Part shown: piece after piece, positions 3,159-34,423 of the stretch
Layout of the letters: each line of letters begins with the position of its first letter
How positions within the stretch are numbered: the stretch's first letter is position 1
Virus record (IMG/VR): IMGVR_UViG_2534682162_000012
Reading direction: 5' to 3' (one strand)
Length of the DNA stretch: 35,791 nt
Origin: a virus
Lineage: Duplodnaviria; Heunggongvirae; Uroviricota; Caudoviricetes
Notes under the pieces: model-generated
What the model was told of the DNA's origin: nothing
The model's database searches: none
What the model saw: the letters and a program-made list of their open reading frames with translations, nothing else
Program-made: the position numbers and the translations under genes

Positions 3159-4237
3159 CAGAACGGGTCCTCCTGTACTCTGGCTTTTTTCTTTTTCCGC
3201 GCGCCGGGGTCTTCGGGTTCAGGCAGATAAGCATCAGGCGGGCCGACACGGATTTCCGTCAGAGTGCCGTTCTGGTCCTGAGTAAACGTGACTTCCGAAA
3301 CAAGCAGTTCGGTATTGTCAAACCCACAGACCGGATCGAAGACAATCACCCGCTGGTTGGGCTGCCACAGCGTACCGTTACCCTGTCGCCAGCCCTGCAC
3401 CACATAGGTGGTTTCGTCCGTTCGCGCCGCCCGTTGTCGGGCTTCAAAGTCAGCACGGGCAATACAGCCTGCCCCCGTAGCCTGCCCTGTCTGCCTGATA
3501 TACATCGGACGGTAACGGGCAATAAATGCGTCCTCTGTGCGGGCCCGCAGCGCGGTGGTGGTGGCCTCACCGAAATCATCGTCGTTTCCGGCACGCTGCC
3601 CCGCCACCTGGTAAACAGAAAACCGCTCCCGGATACTCTTCTCCGTATCGCAGGAAAGGATGTTTTCCCCGAGTACCAGCGCGGTATGTGCCCGCGTTGA
3701 GCCAATACCGCCAATCACCAGCCTGCCGTGCGGGTCGTCGTAAGCCAGCGCCTGCTGCTGACCGAGTATTTTGTTGATCACCTCAATCACCGTTTCACCG
3801 TGATCAGGCTGGACATCAGGAATAACACCCGACGGCGCACCGCTGTTCACCACCTCAATGCCGAAAGGCGCAGCAAGCGCCTGCGCAATCTGTACCAGCG
3901 ATCGTCCGTTAAACTGTGTCGGTTCGGCTGCACAGTCAATCAGGTCAGCGGTCAGACTACGTCCGGCAATACCGGTGCTGACCGAACGGGCATCGTAACG
4001 AACGGGCGTCGCCTCCACCCAGCCGGTGATCACCAGCTCATCACCAATCAGCACTTCCACTTTTGAACCGTTTTTAATGCGCGGCTGAAGCGTGGTAATA
4101 CCCTCATTTCCCGGCCACTGGCGGGTGATCTCCACACTGAAATCCCGCGCCAGTCGTTCAACACCGGCACCGATGCGCACCGATGTCCAGCCATTCCACT
4201 CCCGGCCATTTACCCGTAGCGTGACGTTATCGTTCAT
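3158..4237 (-). CDS. Tail protein, Mu P (gp44)-like baseplate hub
   Basis: 359-aa ORF following the DNA-circularization-like gene, as in Mu N-P-Q order. Confidence 0.55.
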   Translation of the reverse strand: MNDNVTLRVNGREWNGWTSVRIGAGVERLARDFSVEITRQWPGNEGITTLQPRIKNGSKVEVLIGDELVITGWVEATPVRYDARSVSTGIAGRSLTADLIDCAAEPTQFNGRSLVQIAQALAAPFGIEVVNSGAPSGVIPDVQPDHGETVIEVINKILGQQQALAYDDPHGRLVIGGIGSTRAHTALVLGENILSCDTEKSIRERFSVYQVAGQRAGNDDDFGEATTTALRARTEDAFIARYRPMYIRQTGQATGAGCIARADFEARQRAARTDETTYVVQGWRQGNGTLWQPNQRVIVFDPVCGFDNTELLVSEVTFTQDQNGTLTEIRVGPPDAYLPEPEDPGARKKKKARVQEDPF

Positions 4238-24071: not shown

Positions 24072-24461
24072 TCAGGCGGCTGCACCCGCCGGTTTCTCGT
24101 ACTTACTGATAGTGATCTCGACCTTCCCTTCCGGGATAACCGGTCCCCACTCCACCAACATTCTTTTCACTTGGCTGTCGTCTTCCCACACACCCGCGTG
24201 GGTCAGGGCGTCAAACAGCGCCTTGTTATAGTTGTCCAGATCGCGGATCCGGTTATCCGGAGGAAACAACACGATCTCCACTGAAGCAGGTGCCGACGTT
24301 GGTTTCGGCAGACGACGTAACTGCTCAACTATTGCTGCGCACGCTGCGCTCTGGAATTTTCGCCCCGCCGCGCTTATCAGGCTCTTACCAGCAAACGCCC
24401 CTTTGTTGGGGTGTCGCCAGTACGTGTTCACGCTGGGCGGAAAAGGCAGGATCAGCTTCAT
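24072..24461 (-). CDS. rusA: Holliday junction resolvase RusA-like
   Basis: 129-aa ORF with the characteristic N-terminal PPSVNTYWRH motif and acidic catalytic region (DLDNYNKALFDAL). Confidence 0.8.
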   Translation of the reverse strand: MKLILPFPPSVNTYWRHPNKGAFAGKSLISAAGRKFQSAACAAIVEQLRRLPKPTSAPASVEIVLFPPDNRIRDLDNYNKALFDALTHAGVWEDDSQVKRMLVEWGPVIPEGKVEITISKYEKPAGAAA

Positions 24462-24784
24462 ACTTTCAGGCCCCTCTCATGTAACCAGTGGGTTGCACGC
24501 AGCTTTGCGTTTTCCTCACCGGCAAGCAGTGCGCGGATAATCCCGACCGCCTCGCTGTCGTCGTCCTTCACCGCGGTATGAAGCGTTATCCCCCGGGCCA
24601 CGCCACGCTTTATCGTGATGACGCCTTTTTTCTCCAGTGCACGAAGATGCTCTACCGCTGCATTCACTGAACGGTATCCCAGCATGGTAGCCACCTCCTG
24701 ATTGGTTGGCGGGAAGCCACGTTCTTTCTGGTAAGAAATCAGCATATCCAGCACCTGCTGCTGGCATTGAGTTAACGTCGTCAT
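24458..24784 (-). CDS. LexA DNA-binding-domain homologue lacking the S24 peptidase domain
   Basis: Start at the internal ATG (MTTLTQCQQQVLD...), which overlaps the upstream stop as TAATG; aligns by eye with LexA N-terminal winged helix (PPT..E.A..LG.RS.NAA.EHL.AL..KGVI.I..G..RGI.L). Confidence 0.55.
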   Translation of the reverse strand: MTTLTQCQQQVLDMLISYQKERGFPPTNQEVATMLGYRSVNAAVEHLRALEKKGVITIKRGVARGITLHTAVKDDDSEAVGIIRALLAGEENAKLRATHWLHERGLKV

Positions 24785-25272
24785 TAAGCCCCCACGTAAT
24801 TCCCTGACAGATACCACTCTTCACCCGATGCAGCGCGCTTGCTGCTTTTCCGTAAGCACCGCTCACGACGTGCCAGAAAATTGTTTCGTTCTGGCTGGGA
24901 GTGGCTTTCACGGAATGCCGCCATCCACACGGTTGCAGCACGACGGTATAAGCCCCTTGACTCCAGTTCTTCAGCCTGGCGGGTCAGGCACAAAATCACC
25001 CGTGGATCGTTAGTGCCGACATAGAAATTGCGCACAGGTCTGGTTTCACGAACTGGTTGTGGTTCCGGCTCCAGCGCTCTCTCAGTCAGGCGCGGGAAAT
25101 GTCTGCGTGTATCTCCTTCACAACGGTGAGCCACACGCCCACTCTGACGTAACTTGCTTGCTGACTGCAGAACGCGCTGCCGTGAGTAACCTGCAAAAGC
25201 ATCCGCAATGTCTCCGGAAGTACACCCCGGATGGGCTTCAATGAATTTCTGAACTTCATTCAAAAGACTCAT
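24784..25272 (-). CDS. Hypothetical basic protein (162 aa), replication-region gene
   Basis: ORF between the replication initiator and the LexA-like gene; Arg-rich; no motif recognised. Confidence 0.4.
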   Translation of the reverse strand: MSLLNEVQKFIEAHPGCTSGDIADAFAGYSRQRVLQSASKLRQSGRVAHRCEGDTRRHFPRLTERALEPEPQPVRETRPVRNFYVGTNDPRVILCLTRQAEELESRGLYRRAATVWMAAFRESHSQPERNNFLARRERCLRKSSKRAASGEEWYLSGNYVGA

Positions 25273-25274
25273 GA

Positions 25275-26216
25275 TTACCCCCTGAATCCTGCCGGGATCT
25301 GGCTGTAGTCCACGTTGTCGTAACTGGATTTGAAGTACGGGTCTTCGCGTTTTTCGGTGTACGTGCTTACGGACGGCGATAAGCGCAGGGAAAGCTCATC
25401 CCATTTTTCCCGCAGCTTCGACGGGCTGAGCACGTTACGGCACCAGAACGGATCGCGGCTGACGCGGCTGTACATCTCGCAGATTTGTTTGTGAGTACGA
25501 CCATCCTGCACACACATCAGGCGAATTTCGTTTGCCCAGGCTGTCCAGTTCGGTTCTTTGGGACGAACCACCTCGCCGTCACATTCGGCAGCCAGCTCGT
25601 ACAGGGCGATGATTTTTTTCCAGAGCCACTGTGCGCAGGTCAAATCATCCTGCGTTCCCCACTGGCGCTTTTTAGGGCTGAATACAACCGCATCAGGATG
25701 GCGAGTTAAAAAATCCTGTTCATCCGTCTGCGTGTCCGGTTGCGAAGCGTCCGGACGAGAAGGTTTTTTATCTGACGGATCATGTTTTGATTTTACTGAC
25801 GGATCCCCGCCAGATTCTGACGGGTGAAAACCCGCTTTTTTGCCAGATTTCGACGCATCAAATTTTGACGGGTCAGATTTTGATGCGTCAGATTTTGACG
25901 GGTCAGAATCTGACAGTTGAGAAAATGCCGCTGCCTGAAGCTTCGCAACGTTAAGCTGATAAACATTCGACGCATTGCGGTTACCCTGGCGACGCGCCTT
26001 ACGCGTTAACCAGCCTTCTGCTTCCAGCCGTGCGATAGCCGTTCTGACGGTACTCATCCCCGCGCCAATCTGACGGGCAATGGTTTCAATTGATGGCCAG
26101 CACACACCTTCGTCATTACTGAAATCAGCCAGGCGGGCCATAATTGCCACGCTGGATAATTTCATGCCTGACGCTGCGCAACCATCCCATACATAGCCGG
26201 TTAATTTAGTGCTCAT
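25275..26216 (-). CDS. Replication initiator protein (lambda O-like; N-terminal HTH)
   Basis: 313-aa ORF with an N-terminal HTH-like domain, a central low-complexity SDxSKxD repeat region encoded by the iterons, and a C-terminal domain. Confidence 0.65.
   Translation of the reverse strand: MSTKLTGYVWDGCAASGMKLSSVAIMARLADFSNDEGVCWPSIETIARQIGAGMSTVRTAIARLEAEGWLTRKARRQGNRNASNVYQLNVAKLQAAAFSQLSDSDPSKSDASKSDPSKFDASKSGKKAGFHPSESGGDPSVKSKHDPSDKKPSRPDASQPDTQTDEQDFLTRHPDAVVFSPKKRQWGTQDDLTCAQWLWKKIIALYELAAECDGEVVRPKEPNWTAWANEIRLMCVQDGRTHKQICEMYSRVSRDPFWCRNVLSPSKLREKWDELSLRLSPSVSTYTEKREDPYFKSSYDNVDYSQIPAGFRG
25811..25918. repeat. Origin-like iteron array inside the initiator gene
   Basis: Five contiguous copies of a 15-bp unit (consensus about CAGATTTTGACGGGT) plus an outlying copy at 25811 and TGACGG half-sites from about 25770. 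Confidence 0.6.
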
Positions 26217-27518: not shown

Positions 27519-28205
27519 GTGAAAACACTGGCAGAACGATTAAAGATAGGTAGAGAGAAAGCTGGCATGAGCCAAGCTCAACTAGCTGAAAAAATTGGAC
27601 TTTCACAACAATCTGTAGCCAAAATAGAGAATGGCGAAACTCTACAACCGCGCAAAATTAAAGAAATTGCAAAAGTTTTAGGTGTATCACAAAAGTGGTT
27701 ACAACTTGGTATTGAAGACAACGCATCCATACCTGATCTTGTTGTAAAAGAAGCAGAAAGCACCGCATTAGACCCCGATATTTTCGTAAACATTCCTGTT
27801 TTAGATGTCGAGTTATCGGCAGGTAACGGATGTCTGGCTGAAATAGTTGAATCAGCTATTGACTGGTTTCCGTTAAGAAGAGCAGATTTGAGAAAATCTG
27901 GCGTATGTGCATCTAATGCCAAGATCGTAAAAATATGGGGGAACAGTTTATTACCGGTTCTCAATAATGGAGATCTTGTTGCCGTTGATATTTCTCAAAC
28001 CGTTCCTATTCGTGATGGCGATCTTTATGCCGTACGAGATGGTGTATTGCTAAGGGTTAAAATACTTATCAACTTACCTGACGGTGGCTTGATTCTTAGA
28101 AGCTTCAACAAAGATGAGTACCCAGATGAAATACTCACCTTTGAAGATAGACGAGCCAGAATTCATGTTATAGGTAGGGTATTCTGGTCATCGCGAACTT
28201 GGTAA
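27519..28205 (+). CDS. CI-like repressor (XRE HTH plus S24 LexA-like peptidase domain)
   Basis: GTG start with AAGAGAGGG RBS; N-terminal HTH (MSQAQLAEKIGLSQQSVAKIENGE) and C-terminal S24-like autocleavage domain with Ala-Gly-type cleavage region. Confidence 0.85.
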   Translation: MKTLAERLKIGREKAGMSQAQLAEKIGLSQQSVAKIENGETLQPRKIKEIAKVLGVSQKWLQLGIEDNASIPDLVVKEAESTALDPDIFVNIPVLDVELSAGNGCLAEIVESAIDWFPLRRADLRKSGVCASNAKIVKIWGNSLLPVLNNGDLVAVDISQTVPIRDGDLYAVRDGVLLRVKILINLPDGGLILRSFNKDEYPDEILTFEDRRARIHVIGRVFWSSRTW

Positions 28206-29078
28206 TGCATCGAAAAGCATTTCTTCAGAAATAATTTTAAGTTTTGCACCATTATCATCCCTATAAGATATAGCCTTTTCGATCTTCCTTCCGTGACTTG
28301 AGAATTTCCAATCACGGGAGGAAAGCGTCCCAATTACTAAAAAATCCAACTTTTGAGTAATTCCACTACTGATGTTCCCACCAGCATTTTTAATCAAATT
28401 TTCAACTACGGCTCTCTTTCCTGCAACAAAAGTGCCTGTAAGACAATAGGTTTTACCCTCTAACTCTATCGAAGCCCCTACATCAATAGGCAGCCTGGTC
28501 GCCAAACCATCCACCACCCCACTTTCCAAGTCACATCCTGTGAAGTCTACTAATGCCTTATGTAGAGTTAAACTCTCATCTTCAGTAATAACACCATCTT
28601 TAAGAATTTCCTTTACAAGTGCATAAAGTTTTTTTCCTGGGTAGTTGTTCTTCAAAGCTCCATTTTGCTCAAGCCACCAATTAAGATATCTTATTTCTTC
28701 TTGAGTTAAGTTCCGATCAGCAATTAATCCTTTACATAGTCCATTAAGTAAATGGACATCTACATCCTTGGAGTAAAAATCAATTTCAGGGATATCAAGA
28801 ATTTCCCTCTGTATTTGGAGAAGGCTATTTTTAAGGTCATCACGTTCTTCTGATGTGATTATTCCATCCGCAAGAATATCCGACACCCGTGCTGATAGAC
28901 TTTTTATAACTCCATTATTGATAATCTGCTTTGCTTCAAGTAACCATGTATCTAAGTAAAGAACCTCCTCTTCACGGACAACTCCATCTGCAATGATTCC
29001 ATCAATGATGCTAATCAAGTTAGCAAATAACTTGTCCCGGTTCTGTGTGTAATTAAAAGCGTAAAGCGCGTCTTCCAT
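28188..29078 (-). CDS. Tandem-repeat protein with C-terminal BRCT domain (296 aa), accessory
   Basis: Start at ATG 29078 (MEDALYAF...) with AAGGAGG RBS; four repeats of about 45 aa (DG(V/I)(V/I)..EE...L..WL); C-terminal GKTYCLTGTF...DFLVIG BRCT-like fold; AT-rich by eye; overlaps cI 3' end by 18 nt. Confidence 0.65.
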   Translation of the reverse strand: MEDALYAFNYTQNRDKLFANLISIIDGIIADGVVREEEVLYLDTWLLEAKQIINNGVIKSLSARVSDILADGIITSEERDDLKNSLLQIQREILDIPEIDFYSKDVDVHLLNGLCKGLIADRNLTQEEIRYLNWWLEQNGALKNNYPGKKLYALVKEILKDGVITEDESLTLHKALVDFTGCDLESGVVDGLATRLPIDVGASIELEGKTYCLTGTFVAGKRAVVENLIKNAGGNISSGITQKLDFLVIGTLSSRDWKFSSHGRKIEKAISYRDDNGAKLKIISEEMLFDALPSSR

Positions 29079-29135
29079 ACAACCTCCTTTTTTTGATAAT
29101 CCTTGCACTCCTTGGCTACTCGTTCAAACCACATA

Positions 29136-32943: not shown

Positions 32944-33293
32944 TGGAGCCATACAGCCTCACACTCGATGAGGCCTGTCATTTTCTCAAGATATCCAGAC
33001 CGACTGCCATTAACTGGATACGCACAGGGCGTCTTCAGGCAACACGCAAAGATCCCACTAAGAATAAATCTCCTTACCTCACAACACGACAAGCCTGCAT
33101 TGCGGCTCTTCAGTCTCCGCTGCATACTGTCCAGGTGAGCGCGGGTGATGGCATAACAGAGGAAAGAAAATGTCACTCTTCCGCAGAAGTGAAATATGGT
33201 ACGCCAGTTTCACATTGCCGAACGGTAAAAGATTTAAACAGTCTCTTGGAACAAAGGACAAAAGGCAGGCGACAGAGCTCCATGACAAGCTAA
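32943..33293 (+). CDS. Excisionase-like HTH protein (AlpA/Xis family)
   Basis: Start at ATG 32943 ([33 protein letters not shown]); immediately upstream of int and overlapping its 5' end by about 120 nt; true C-terminus uncertain. Confidence 0.5.
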
Positions 33294-34333
33294 AGGCTGA
33301 AGCATGGCGGGTCAGCAAACTTGGTGAAATACCTGATATGACGTTTGAGGAAGCGTGTGTCAGGTGGCTCGAAGAGAAAGCACATAAGAAATCACTGGAC
33401 GATGACAAAAGCCGGATCGGATTCTGGCTTCAACATTTCGCAGGGATGCAACTAAGAGACATCACTGAATCAAAAATTTATTCAGCGATGCAGAAAATGA
33501 CAAACCGGCGTCATGAGGAAAACTGGAAACTCAGGGCAGAAGCATGCAGAAAAAAAGGGAAACCTGTTCCAGAATACACGCCAAAACCAGCGTCCGTTGC
33601 AACGAAGGCTACGCATCTTTCATTTATAAAGGCCCTGCTAAGAGCCGCAGAGCGTGAATGGAAAATGCTGGATAAGGCACCAATTCTTAAAGTGCCTCAA
33701 CCGAAGAATAAACGTATCCGCTGGCTGGAGCCTCATGAAGCACAAAGGCTGATTGATGAATGTCCGGAGCCATTAAAGTCTGTTGTTGAATTTGCACTGG
33801 CAACAGGCTTAAGACGCTCGAACATCATCAACCTTGAATGGCAACAAATAGACATGCAGCGCCGGGTGGCATGGATAAACCCGGAAGAGAGTAAATCAAA
33901 CCGCGCAATTGGCGTTGCGCTGAATGATACTGCATGTCGCGTATTGAAAAAACAAATCGGGAATCATCACCGTTGGGTATTTGTATACAAGGAAAGCTGT
34001 ACCAAACCAGACGGAACGAAAGCGCCAACGGTCAGGAAGATGCGGTATGACGCAAACACAGCCTGGAAAGCGGCGCTGAGACGAGCAGGTATTGATGATT
34101 TCAGATTTCACGACTTGAGACACACCTGGGCAAGTTGGCTGGTTCAAGCCGGAGTCCCGTTGTCAGTGTTACAGGAAATGGGAGGCTGGGAGTCTATCGA
34201 AATGGTTCGTCGATATGCTCACCTCGCACCTAATCACCTTACCGAACATGCACGGCAAATAGACTCGATCCTGAACCCATCGGTCCCAAATTTGTCCCAG
34301 TCAAAAAATAAGGAAGGTACTAATGATGTGTAA
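33170..34333 (+). CDS. int: Tyrosine site-specific integrase
   Basis: 387-aa ORF with catalytic R...HDLRHTWAS...RRYAH tyrosine-recombinase signature; ends 15 nt from the tRNA 3' end. Confidence 0.85.
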
Positions 34334-34347
34334 CTTATTGATTTAAA

Positions 34348-34423
34348 TGGTGCCGATAATAGGAGTCGAACCTACGACCTTCGCATTACGAATGCGCTGC
34401 TCTACCAACTGAGCTATATCGGC
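34348..34423 (-). tRNA. thrW: tRNA-Thr (anticodon CGU)
   Basis: 76-nt minus-strand sequence GCCGATATAGCTCAGTTGGTAGAGCAGCGCATTCGTAATGCGAAGGTCGTAGGTTCGACTCCTATTATCGGCACCA with cloverleaf pairing, anticodon loop TT-CGT-AA and 3' CCA. Confidence 0.85.

Follow-up and report, generated by a model that had tools for sequence, protein, structure and literature searches.

We analysed a 35,791-nucleotide stretch of tailed-phage DNA (IMG/VR virus record IMGVR_UViG_2534682162_000012; hereafter the window), which is an SfII/SfIV-like lambdoid prophage integrated at thrW, and focused on a replication initiator gene on its minus strand and on an array of short repeats (iterons) that lies inside this gene. 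The gene encodes a protein of 313 amino acids (aa) that is 99% identical to its counterparts in the isolated phages SfII, SfIV and PhiR49_1, and the 4.3 kb around it has matches in thousands of E. coli genomes. From the N-terminus, the protein consists of a winged-helix domain, a linker encoded by the repeats, a C-domain of the lambda O type and a short C-terminal tail. The features of the gene are as follows, with the sequences of the repeat units given on the coding (minus) strand.

25275-26216, minus strand: replication initiator gene, 313 aa (open reading frame (ORF); phrog_391 'replication initiation O-like', E 1.1e-134)
25926-26216, minus strand: N-terminal DNA-binding domain (aa 1-97), the presumed reader of the iterons (Pfam HTH_36, 4.3e-11)
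25734-25925: proposed origin, the zone of DNA-level constraint (aa 98-161; codon alignment of 75 homologues)
25842-25916: five contiguous 15-bp iterons, u0-u4 (coding-strand consensus NNN TCA AAA TCT GAC)
25902-25916, minus strand: u0, CTGTCAGATTCTGAC
25887-25901, minus strand: u1, CCGTCAAAATCTGAC
25872-25886, minus strand: u2, GCATCAAAATCTGAC
25857-25871, minus strand: u3, CCGTCAAAATTTGAT
25842-25856, minus strand: u4, GCGTCGAAATCTGGC
25824-25841: 18-bp spacer from u4 to u5, overlapping a small hairpin (CGGGT/ACCCG)
25809-25823, minus strand: outlying iteron u5 with a near-palindromic core, CCGTCAGAATCTGGC
25791-25805, minus strand: half-site repeat, GATCCGTCAGTAAAA
25767-25781, minus strand: half-site repeat, GATCCGTCAGATAAA
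25757-25796: least stable 40-mer of the gene, 67.5% A+T, a candidate unwinding element (nearest-neighbour stability profile)
25386-25709, minus strand: C-domain homologous to the lambda O C-domain (BLASTP, tblastn, PHROG)
25278-25304, minus strand: C-terminal peptide SQIPAGFRG, shared with the extreme C-terminus of host DnaT and predicted to be disordered (predicted local distance difference test (pLDDT) < 50)

An earlier note, made from the letters of the window, had described five contiguous copies of a 15-bp unit, an outlying copy and additional half-sites within the initiator gene, where they would encode a repetitive linker. The five copies were found at 25842-25916, the register given in that note, CAGATTTTGACGGGT (plus strand, 25844-25918), being the same array shifted by 2 nt. 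The outlying copy is u5, and the half-sites belong to two 15-bp repeats within 25767-25805 that are 24 bp apart, each with a GATC, the half-site CCGTCAG and an A-run. The six units with a palindromic core occupy nt 301-408 of the gene, its linker-coding part, and the repeat-encoded peptide is indeed repetitive (LSDSD-PSKSD-ASKSD-PSKFD-ASKSG). The tandem-repeat search that the note had suggested as a check was run: Tandem Repeats Finder reported, at 25844-25907, a period of 15 bp with 4.3 copies (score 86) and a period of 30 bp with 2.1 copies (score 100), and the top score in 200 dinucleotide-preserving shuffles of the window was 66, so that 0/200 shuffles reached 86. We gave no weight to the 30-bp super-period, which reflects alternating CCG/GCA spacers and is not general among relatives.

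The conserved core of the units is an 11-bp palindrome, TCAGAWTCTGA, which in u0 extends to a perfect 13-bp palindrome, GTCAGATTCTGAC. Searching for TCARAWTCTGA with at most one mismatch located five sites in the array and one elsewhere in the window (12 strand-matches vs 2.7 expected; 12 reached in 0/100 shuffles), and the array is the sole direct-repeat family with at least three copies in the window. The repeats are therefore real and non-random, far beyond chance. The half-site octamer CCGTCAGA is likewise in excess, with 10 copies in the window vs 0.94 expected (0/100 shuffles), at positions 3256, 7732, 12485, 13772, 21963, 25771, 25816, 26043, 26069 and 26335. Two copies, at 26043 and 26069, fall in the part of the gene that encodes the N-domain; relatives do not conserve them at silent sites, and they are therefore probably without function. 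Five further copies lie far from the array, in late genes, and their flanks share no further similarity.

Conservation of the linker DNA and its inheritance with the N-domain

The comparison drew on 80 loci from bacterial assemblies taken at one genome per species, all with the same N-domain at 58-100% identity, which span Escherichia/Shigella, Citrobacter, Kosakonia, Kluyvera, Buttiauxella, Yersinia, Providencia, Proteus, Pantoea, Erwinia, Rahnella and others. In every complete gene among these loci, a similar array of 3-9 units occupies the same place. A codon alignment of 75 distinct homologous genes from Enterobacterales was used to quantify variation. The N-domain (aa 1-97) had an amino-acid entropy of 0.67 bits and entropies of 0.55, 0.35 and 1.45 at codon positions 1, 2 and 3; its third positions are near saturation, with 4-6 synonymous codons in use at most conserved residues. 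For the linker (aa 98-161) the amino-acid entropy was 1.30 and the codon-position entropies were of similar size (0.67, 0.62 and 0.84), the third-position value being lower than that of the N-domain (Mann-Whitney p = 1e-10). Degenerate codons of the linker are fixed (TCA, TCT, GTA and GAT, each 1.00; CCG, 0.91), and ordinary coding behaviour resumes at about aa 162. Each unit combines 12 invariant core bases with a 3-bp spacer that is free to vary, whatever the codon position, and the amino-acid replacements that occur (K to E/N/D, S to F/P, D to E/V) are those that leave the DNA core intact. The codons of u5 are nearly invariant (GAA, 1.00; TCT, 0.97), with CCG at 0.82 and a Pro codon (CCA, 0.97) in place of the Ser codon in about half of the homologues. 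Both half-site repeats are fixed at synonymous sites, as GAT CCG TCA and GAT CCA TCA.

Since the amino acids of the linker vary more than those of the N-domain and yet its codons are fixed, selection acts on the nucleotide sequence of 25734-25925. This result is conservative, because misalignment caused by differing copy numbers could only inflate the entropy, and a recent sweep is no explanation, because the linker exceeds the N-domain in divergence at codon positions 1 and 2. It is the DNA, not the encoded peptide, that is conserved in the linker.

These data bear directly on the idea that the repeats are a low-complexity, slippage-prone coding linker, (SDxSK)n, without a function at the DNA level. 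Copy number does change in multiples of 15 bp, as slippage predicts, and the Ser/Asp/Lys-rich peptide resembles many flexible linkers. Near-identical phages in IMG/VR (L107, L116, L118, L119, L156 and L163) differ from the window by -1, +1 or +2 iteron units, which gives initiators of 308, 318 or 323 aa compared with 313 here, and iteron number is therefore polymorphic in natural populations. A mere linker is nevertheless already contradicted by the alignment, in which the repeat-coding part, compared with the flanking domain, is the more conserved at synonymous positions and the less conserved in amino acids. Lineages with N-domains that have reached saturation at silent sites still use TCA for Ser at one position and TCT at the other, the replacements keep the DNA core intact, and unrelated initiator families have quite different repeats and peptides at the same place. 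We therefore regard this explanation as extremely improbable.

In place of protein-binding DNA, the source of this constraint might be a gene that overlaps the array or an RNA element, for example a structured or an antisense RNA. Alternative ORFs are open across the array (25787-25954, plus strand; 25793-25975, minus strand), a terminator-like hairpin is present on the plus strand at 25821-25834, and the single strand folds much better than shuffled sequences (z = -5.1). However, a repeat unit without stop codons trivially leaves such frames open, and the freely varying triplet would alter the amino acids of the antisense ORF. The strong fold is a necessary result of palindromic units, the hairpin arms (CGGGT/ACCCG) are only partly conserved in relatives, and no Rfam family matches the region. 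An overlapping gene or RNA element thus seems very improbable as the source of the constraint. The hairpin itself, which is followed by a T-run, is antisense to the initiator gene and is situated in the u4-u5 spacer.

Mosaic relatives provided a second line of evidence. Phage mEp460_4F5 shares 25277-25774 with the window at 97% identity; its N-domain is unrelated, it has no TCAGAWTCTGA cores and it carries instead an A+T-rich 12-mer in triplet and dyad repeats of its own, 23 bp long. Conversely, phiNP shares 25738-26215 and has a different C-domain. The junctions at 25774 (mEp460_4F5) and 25738 (phiNP) mean that two independent mosaics bracket the module. In a comparison of 80 IMG/VR loci with a nearly identical C-domain, cores number 5-8 per locus in the 76 loci with the present N-domain and 0 in the 2 loci with that of mEp460. 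Other initiator families contain different dyad-symmetric repeats at the equivalent place, namely GGGGCAGGAGCTGCCC in three copies in F451 and TGGTGCAGGAGATTCACTAGG in four copies in ST64B. In a diverged N-domain subgroup (58-63% identity, phiP27-like), the core is kept and the flanks shift symmetrically from G..C to T..A, an observation that is suggestive only (20 cores from 9 loci). These sequence comparisons indicate that the N-domain and the repeats are one specificity module that is exchanged as a whole.

A candidate replication origin of the lambda type

We propose that 25734-25925 is probably the replication origin of this SfII/SfIV-type prophage, placed inside its own initiator gene as the lambda origin (ori) is placed in gene O. 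This agrees with the earlier note, which had considered the repeats a likely lambda-like origin, and support comes from the DNA-level conservation, the co-inheritance with the N-domain, the A+T-rich neighbour, the homology of the C-domain and the position of the iterons in lambda.

The A+T-rich neighbour, 25757-25796, is directly downstream of the iterons in the direction of transcription and overlaps both half-site repeats. This part of the proposed origin contains GATC (Dam) sites at 25778 and 25802, 24 bp apart, and two GATC sites are present at the equivalent region in 55/75 homologues. A Dam methylase gene stands directly downstream in many related phages; none is present in this window, nor in SfIV.

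The earlier description of the gene as O-like holds for the C-domain and fails for the N-domain. The C-domain (~aa 170-277) is, as judged from sequence comparison, truly homologous to that of lambda O: BLASTP aligned the two proteins with E 2e-25 over aa 70-277, tblastn with lambda O matched the window at 26009..25386 (E 4.8e-23), and phrog_2357 and phrog_277 are common to both proteins. An AlphaFold2 model of the C-domain has a helical core (pLDDT 80-90), for which a structure search with the model found no significant solved relative, and a Pfam search of the C-terminal 155 aa returned no match. The N-domain is of the HTH_36 type, with weaker Pfam matches to GntR, DnaD_N and RP-C and also to HTH_29, and it was not matched by Phage_rep_O (PF04492) in the Pfam search; its sole link to the lambda O N-domain is remote, in that phrog_678 and phrog_345 match both. 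Searching the PDB with the initiator sequence gave only weak matches of the MarR helix-turn-helix type.

A possible course of initiation can be outlined in four steps. Derepression would lead to rightward early transcription and to synthesis of the 313-aa initiator, as the gene order suggests. The winged-helix N-domain, probably as a dimer, would then bind the dyad cores TCAGAWTCTGA, spaced every 15 bp, at the five contiguous units, the one outlier and the two half-sites. The resulting nucleoprotein complex might destabilise the adjacent A+T-rich, GATC-containing stretch at about 25757-25805. In the last and weakest step, the lambda-O-type C-domain together with the DnaT-like tail could recruit host DnaB through the host DnaC loader or the primosome; host loading is invoked here because the phage encodes no P, DnaC or DnaB.

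The layout resembles that of lambda in several respects. In both, the initiator gene is part of the rightward early operon, and the segment coding for the linker that joins a DNA-binding N-domain to a recruitment C-domain contains direct repeats that have dyad symmetry and an A-rich centre. The stretch after the repeats is A+T-rich in lambda and modestly so here. The repeat tool used here also recovers the four annotated iterons of lambda, at nt 349-433 of gene O, an equivalent place. The N-domain and repeats are exchangeable as one module in both systems, and the homologous C-domain binds lambda P in lambda. Unlike lambda O, the present initiator has an N-domain outside Phage_rep_O, its core is TCAGAWTCTGA vs TCCCTCAAAACGAGGGA in lambda, there is no P gene, and an extra DnaT-like tail follows the C-domain, whereas lambda O ends with ...TDWIYGVDL. 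As an origin, the region would be an addition to the lambda-type class of origins inside initiator genes, set apart by 15-bp head-to-tail palindromic iterons, a non-lambda N-domain and the lack of a phage loader.

Plasmid Rep proteins (pSC101 RepA, R6K pi and F RepE) are winged-helix initiators that act on direct repeats beside an A+T-rich region and use host helicase loading, and their iterons are intergenic and about 17-22 bp long. In contrast to these, the iterons described here lie inside the gene, and no homology to plasmid Rep initiators beyond a generic helix-turn-helix was detected. A parallel is found in the Shiga toxin (Stx) phages 933W and P27, which have six-iteron origins and lengthened O proteins studied by electrophoretic mobility shift assay and footprinting (PMC7466680). 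With the proposed origin located within the coding sequence, each added iteron makes the initiator longer, as it does in those phages, and proteins of 308-323 aa result here. The Stx phages differ in having lambda-type O and P genes and lambda-like iterons for which binding has been assayed, whereas the present system is known from its sequence. The paper on the 'Eru' replication units of Stx phages contains nothing on the origin of this module.

Several points weigh against an origin at this site. The evidence for it is entirely comparative and drawn from sequence, and the DNA-level constraint proves a function of the DNA or RNA, not specifically an origin. No origin is annotated in the SfII, SfIV and PhiR49_1 records, and none is mentioned in the SfIV genome paper. 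The 25757-25796 stretch is only modestly A+T-rich (95th percentile of the window). The 15-bp head-to-tail units depart from the lambda arrangement of units of about 18-20 bp at a 20-24-bp spacing, and lambda, F451, ST64B and mEp460_4F5 together have repeats of about 18-23 bp, mostly spaced by 20-24 bp; dimers could not occupy every one of the adjoining 13-bp palindromes on the same helix face. Finally, no partner was found for the proposed helicase-loading step.

The strongest competing explanation is that the repeats bind the initiator or another protein for regulation, such as autoregulation, a roadblock, copy control or incompatibility, with the true origin elsewhere. It draws on the fact that constraint at the DNA level shows only that the DNA matters, on the additional role of plasmid iterons in copy control and on the excess of CCGTCAGA, five of whose 10 copies are outside the gene region. 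Yet the window has no other repeat cluster with at least three copies, synonymous sites of the two extra CCGTCAGA copies within the N-domain segment are unconserved in relatives, and the position at the junction of N- and C-domains, the A+T-rich neighbour and the modular inheritance all fit the layout of the lambda origin. We consider a purely regulatory array unlikely and an origin within the initiator gene the better account.

Early genes, helicase loading and the DnaT-like tail

The gene order around the initiator is that of a lambdoid early region. Further features used below are the following.

24784-25272, minus strand: PerC/YfdN-family transcriptional activator, 162 aa (Pfam PerC, 7.8e-9; phrog_1324 'transcriptional activator', 7.9e-78)
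24458-24817, minus strand: protein of 119 aa with a LexA DNA-binding domain and without the S24 peptidase domain
27519-28205, plus strand: cI-like repressor gene, divergent from the initiator-side genes
33170-34333: integrase, at the prophage end
34348-34423: tRNA-Thr(CGT), at the prophage end, followed by a host aldehyde-dehydrogenase-family gene

On the minus strand, the genes follow in the order Cro/YdaS-like, YmfL/CII-like, a phrog_1170 gene, initiator, PerC/YfdN-like, the protein with only a LexA DNA-binding domain, RusA, KilA-N, DUF968 and Q. The initiator gene thus occupies the rightward early operon, downstream of cro- and cII-like genes, as expected for a lambda-type origin. With the prophage end marked by the integrase, the tRNA-Thr(CGT) gene and a host gene, the window contains the early region in full, from int to Q. 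The thrW gene is the usual integration site for SfII/SfIV/SfV-type phages. As called, the gene for the 119-aa LexA-domain protein begins 34 nt inside the 3' end of the PerC-like gene. A 306-aa protein adjoining the cI-like repressor (28188-29108, minus strand) has a C-terminal BRCT domain and a repetitive helical N-part, and a place beside this repressor is typical for accessory or exclusion genes.

The earlier note had seen no DnaC/P-like loader near the initiator and had suggested that host factors or its uncharacterised 162-aa neighbour might take that part. No homologue of lambda P, DnaC, DnaB or a primase-helicase was found anywhere in the window (tblastn, E > 0.2), which bears out the first statement. 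The gene immediately downstream of the initiator, where no lambda P-type loader gene is present, encodes the 162-aa neighbour itself, which showed no similarity to lambda P, DnaC or DnaB. It is a PerC/YfdN-family activator, and therefore nothing points to a helicase-loader role for it. Modules of this kind have been surveyed: 34/314 lambdoid phages encode only an O homologue, and according to a 2025 survey no such module has been the subject of experiments and how they replicate is not understood (PMC12315714). The present module resembles these 'O-only' modules, exemplified by phage LLS, which was compared by its description only, in having a single O homologue and no helicase or loader; the accessible text of the survey describes neither the origin nor the DnaT-like tail (PMC12315714).

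The end of the initiator matches the conserved extreme C-terminal peptide of E. coli DnaT (primosomal protein i), ...(D)VN.(V/I)SEPD..IPPGFRG. Its last residues, SQIPAGFRG, are identical to SQIPPGFRG of host DnaT at 8/9 positions, and relatives match over 20-30 residues: the homologues P0033 and P0071, close in the C-domain and ending with ...QRCVNHISEPDTEIPPGFRG or ...SRDVNAISEPDNTIPEGFRG, are identical to DnaT at 14/20 and 19/30 positions (E 6e-8 and 2e-8). Carriers of the tail (L172-L198 among them) include at least six N-domain types, and the C-domains that precede it are of at least three unrelated kinds. Unlike the tail, the N-terminal oligomerisation domain of DnaT and its three-helix, single-stranded-DNA-binding C-domain have no counterpart in the phage initiators, by sequence or by fold. 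The database name 'primosomal protein I' for tail-bearing phage proteins therefore rests on the tail alone.

The distribution of the tail was compared with that of loader genes. Among relatives with this N-domain, all 41 tail-bearing genes have no loader downstream (41/41), and all genes followed by a P- or DnaC-type loader lack the tail (7/7). A further 27 relatives have neither the tail nor a detectable loader gene (L021, L027, L029, L044, L046, L050, L056, L059, L061, L065-L076, L081 and L082), and most of these (e.g. L021, L056 and L075) end in another extension of about 50 aa, ...ERDxAFxR...KPRNR...WxxIW...AA. A scan of IMG/VR for the exact tail showed that 3/25 tail-bearing genes (L186, L189 and L190; compare L001, 2239-3518) are directly followed by a close DnaC homologue (E 1e-81 to 1e-42), in the order of host dnaT-dnaC. 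The rule that a tail means the absence of a loader gene was dropped in view of these three exceptions, which led us to replace it with the reading that the tail works with a DnaC-type loader, whether of the host or phage-borne.

We raise it as a hypothesis only, from sequence similarity, that the tail may be a docking peptide for a DnaC-type loader or for the primosome. In its fuller form, which we put forward tentatively and would not rate as high as even, the disordered IPxGFRG peptide might be a portable dock for host DnaB-DnaC loading or for another primosome component, grafted onto at least six unrelated initiator N-domain types and replacing a lambda-P-type loader. How DnaT recruits DnaB/DnaC is left open by the 2026 preprimosome structures, in the accessible part of that report (PMC13377028), and in their accessible parts the structural papers on DnaT say nothing about the terminal peptide.

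For a module that is common in prophages of Escherichia, Shigella and many other Enterobacterales, SfII and SfIV (serotype-converting phages of Shigella) among them, and for which the sources consulted describe no origin, these results supply a concrete candidate origin (about 190 bp) together with a consensus for the proposed binding sites. The DnaT-like tail makes the replication of the 'O-only' class, to which the module belongs, experimentally approachable, and it may also help to explain how DnaT itself passes DnaB/DnaC to a restart site. If true, docking through IPxGFRG would explain how 'O-only' lambdoid phages replicate and would point to the part of DnaT that recruits DnaB/DnaC in replication restart.

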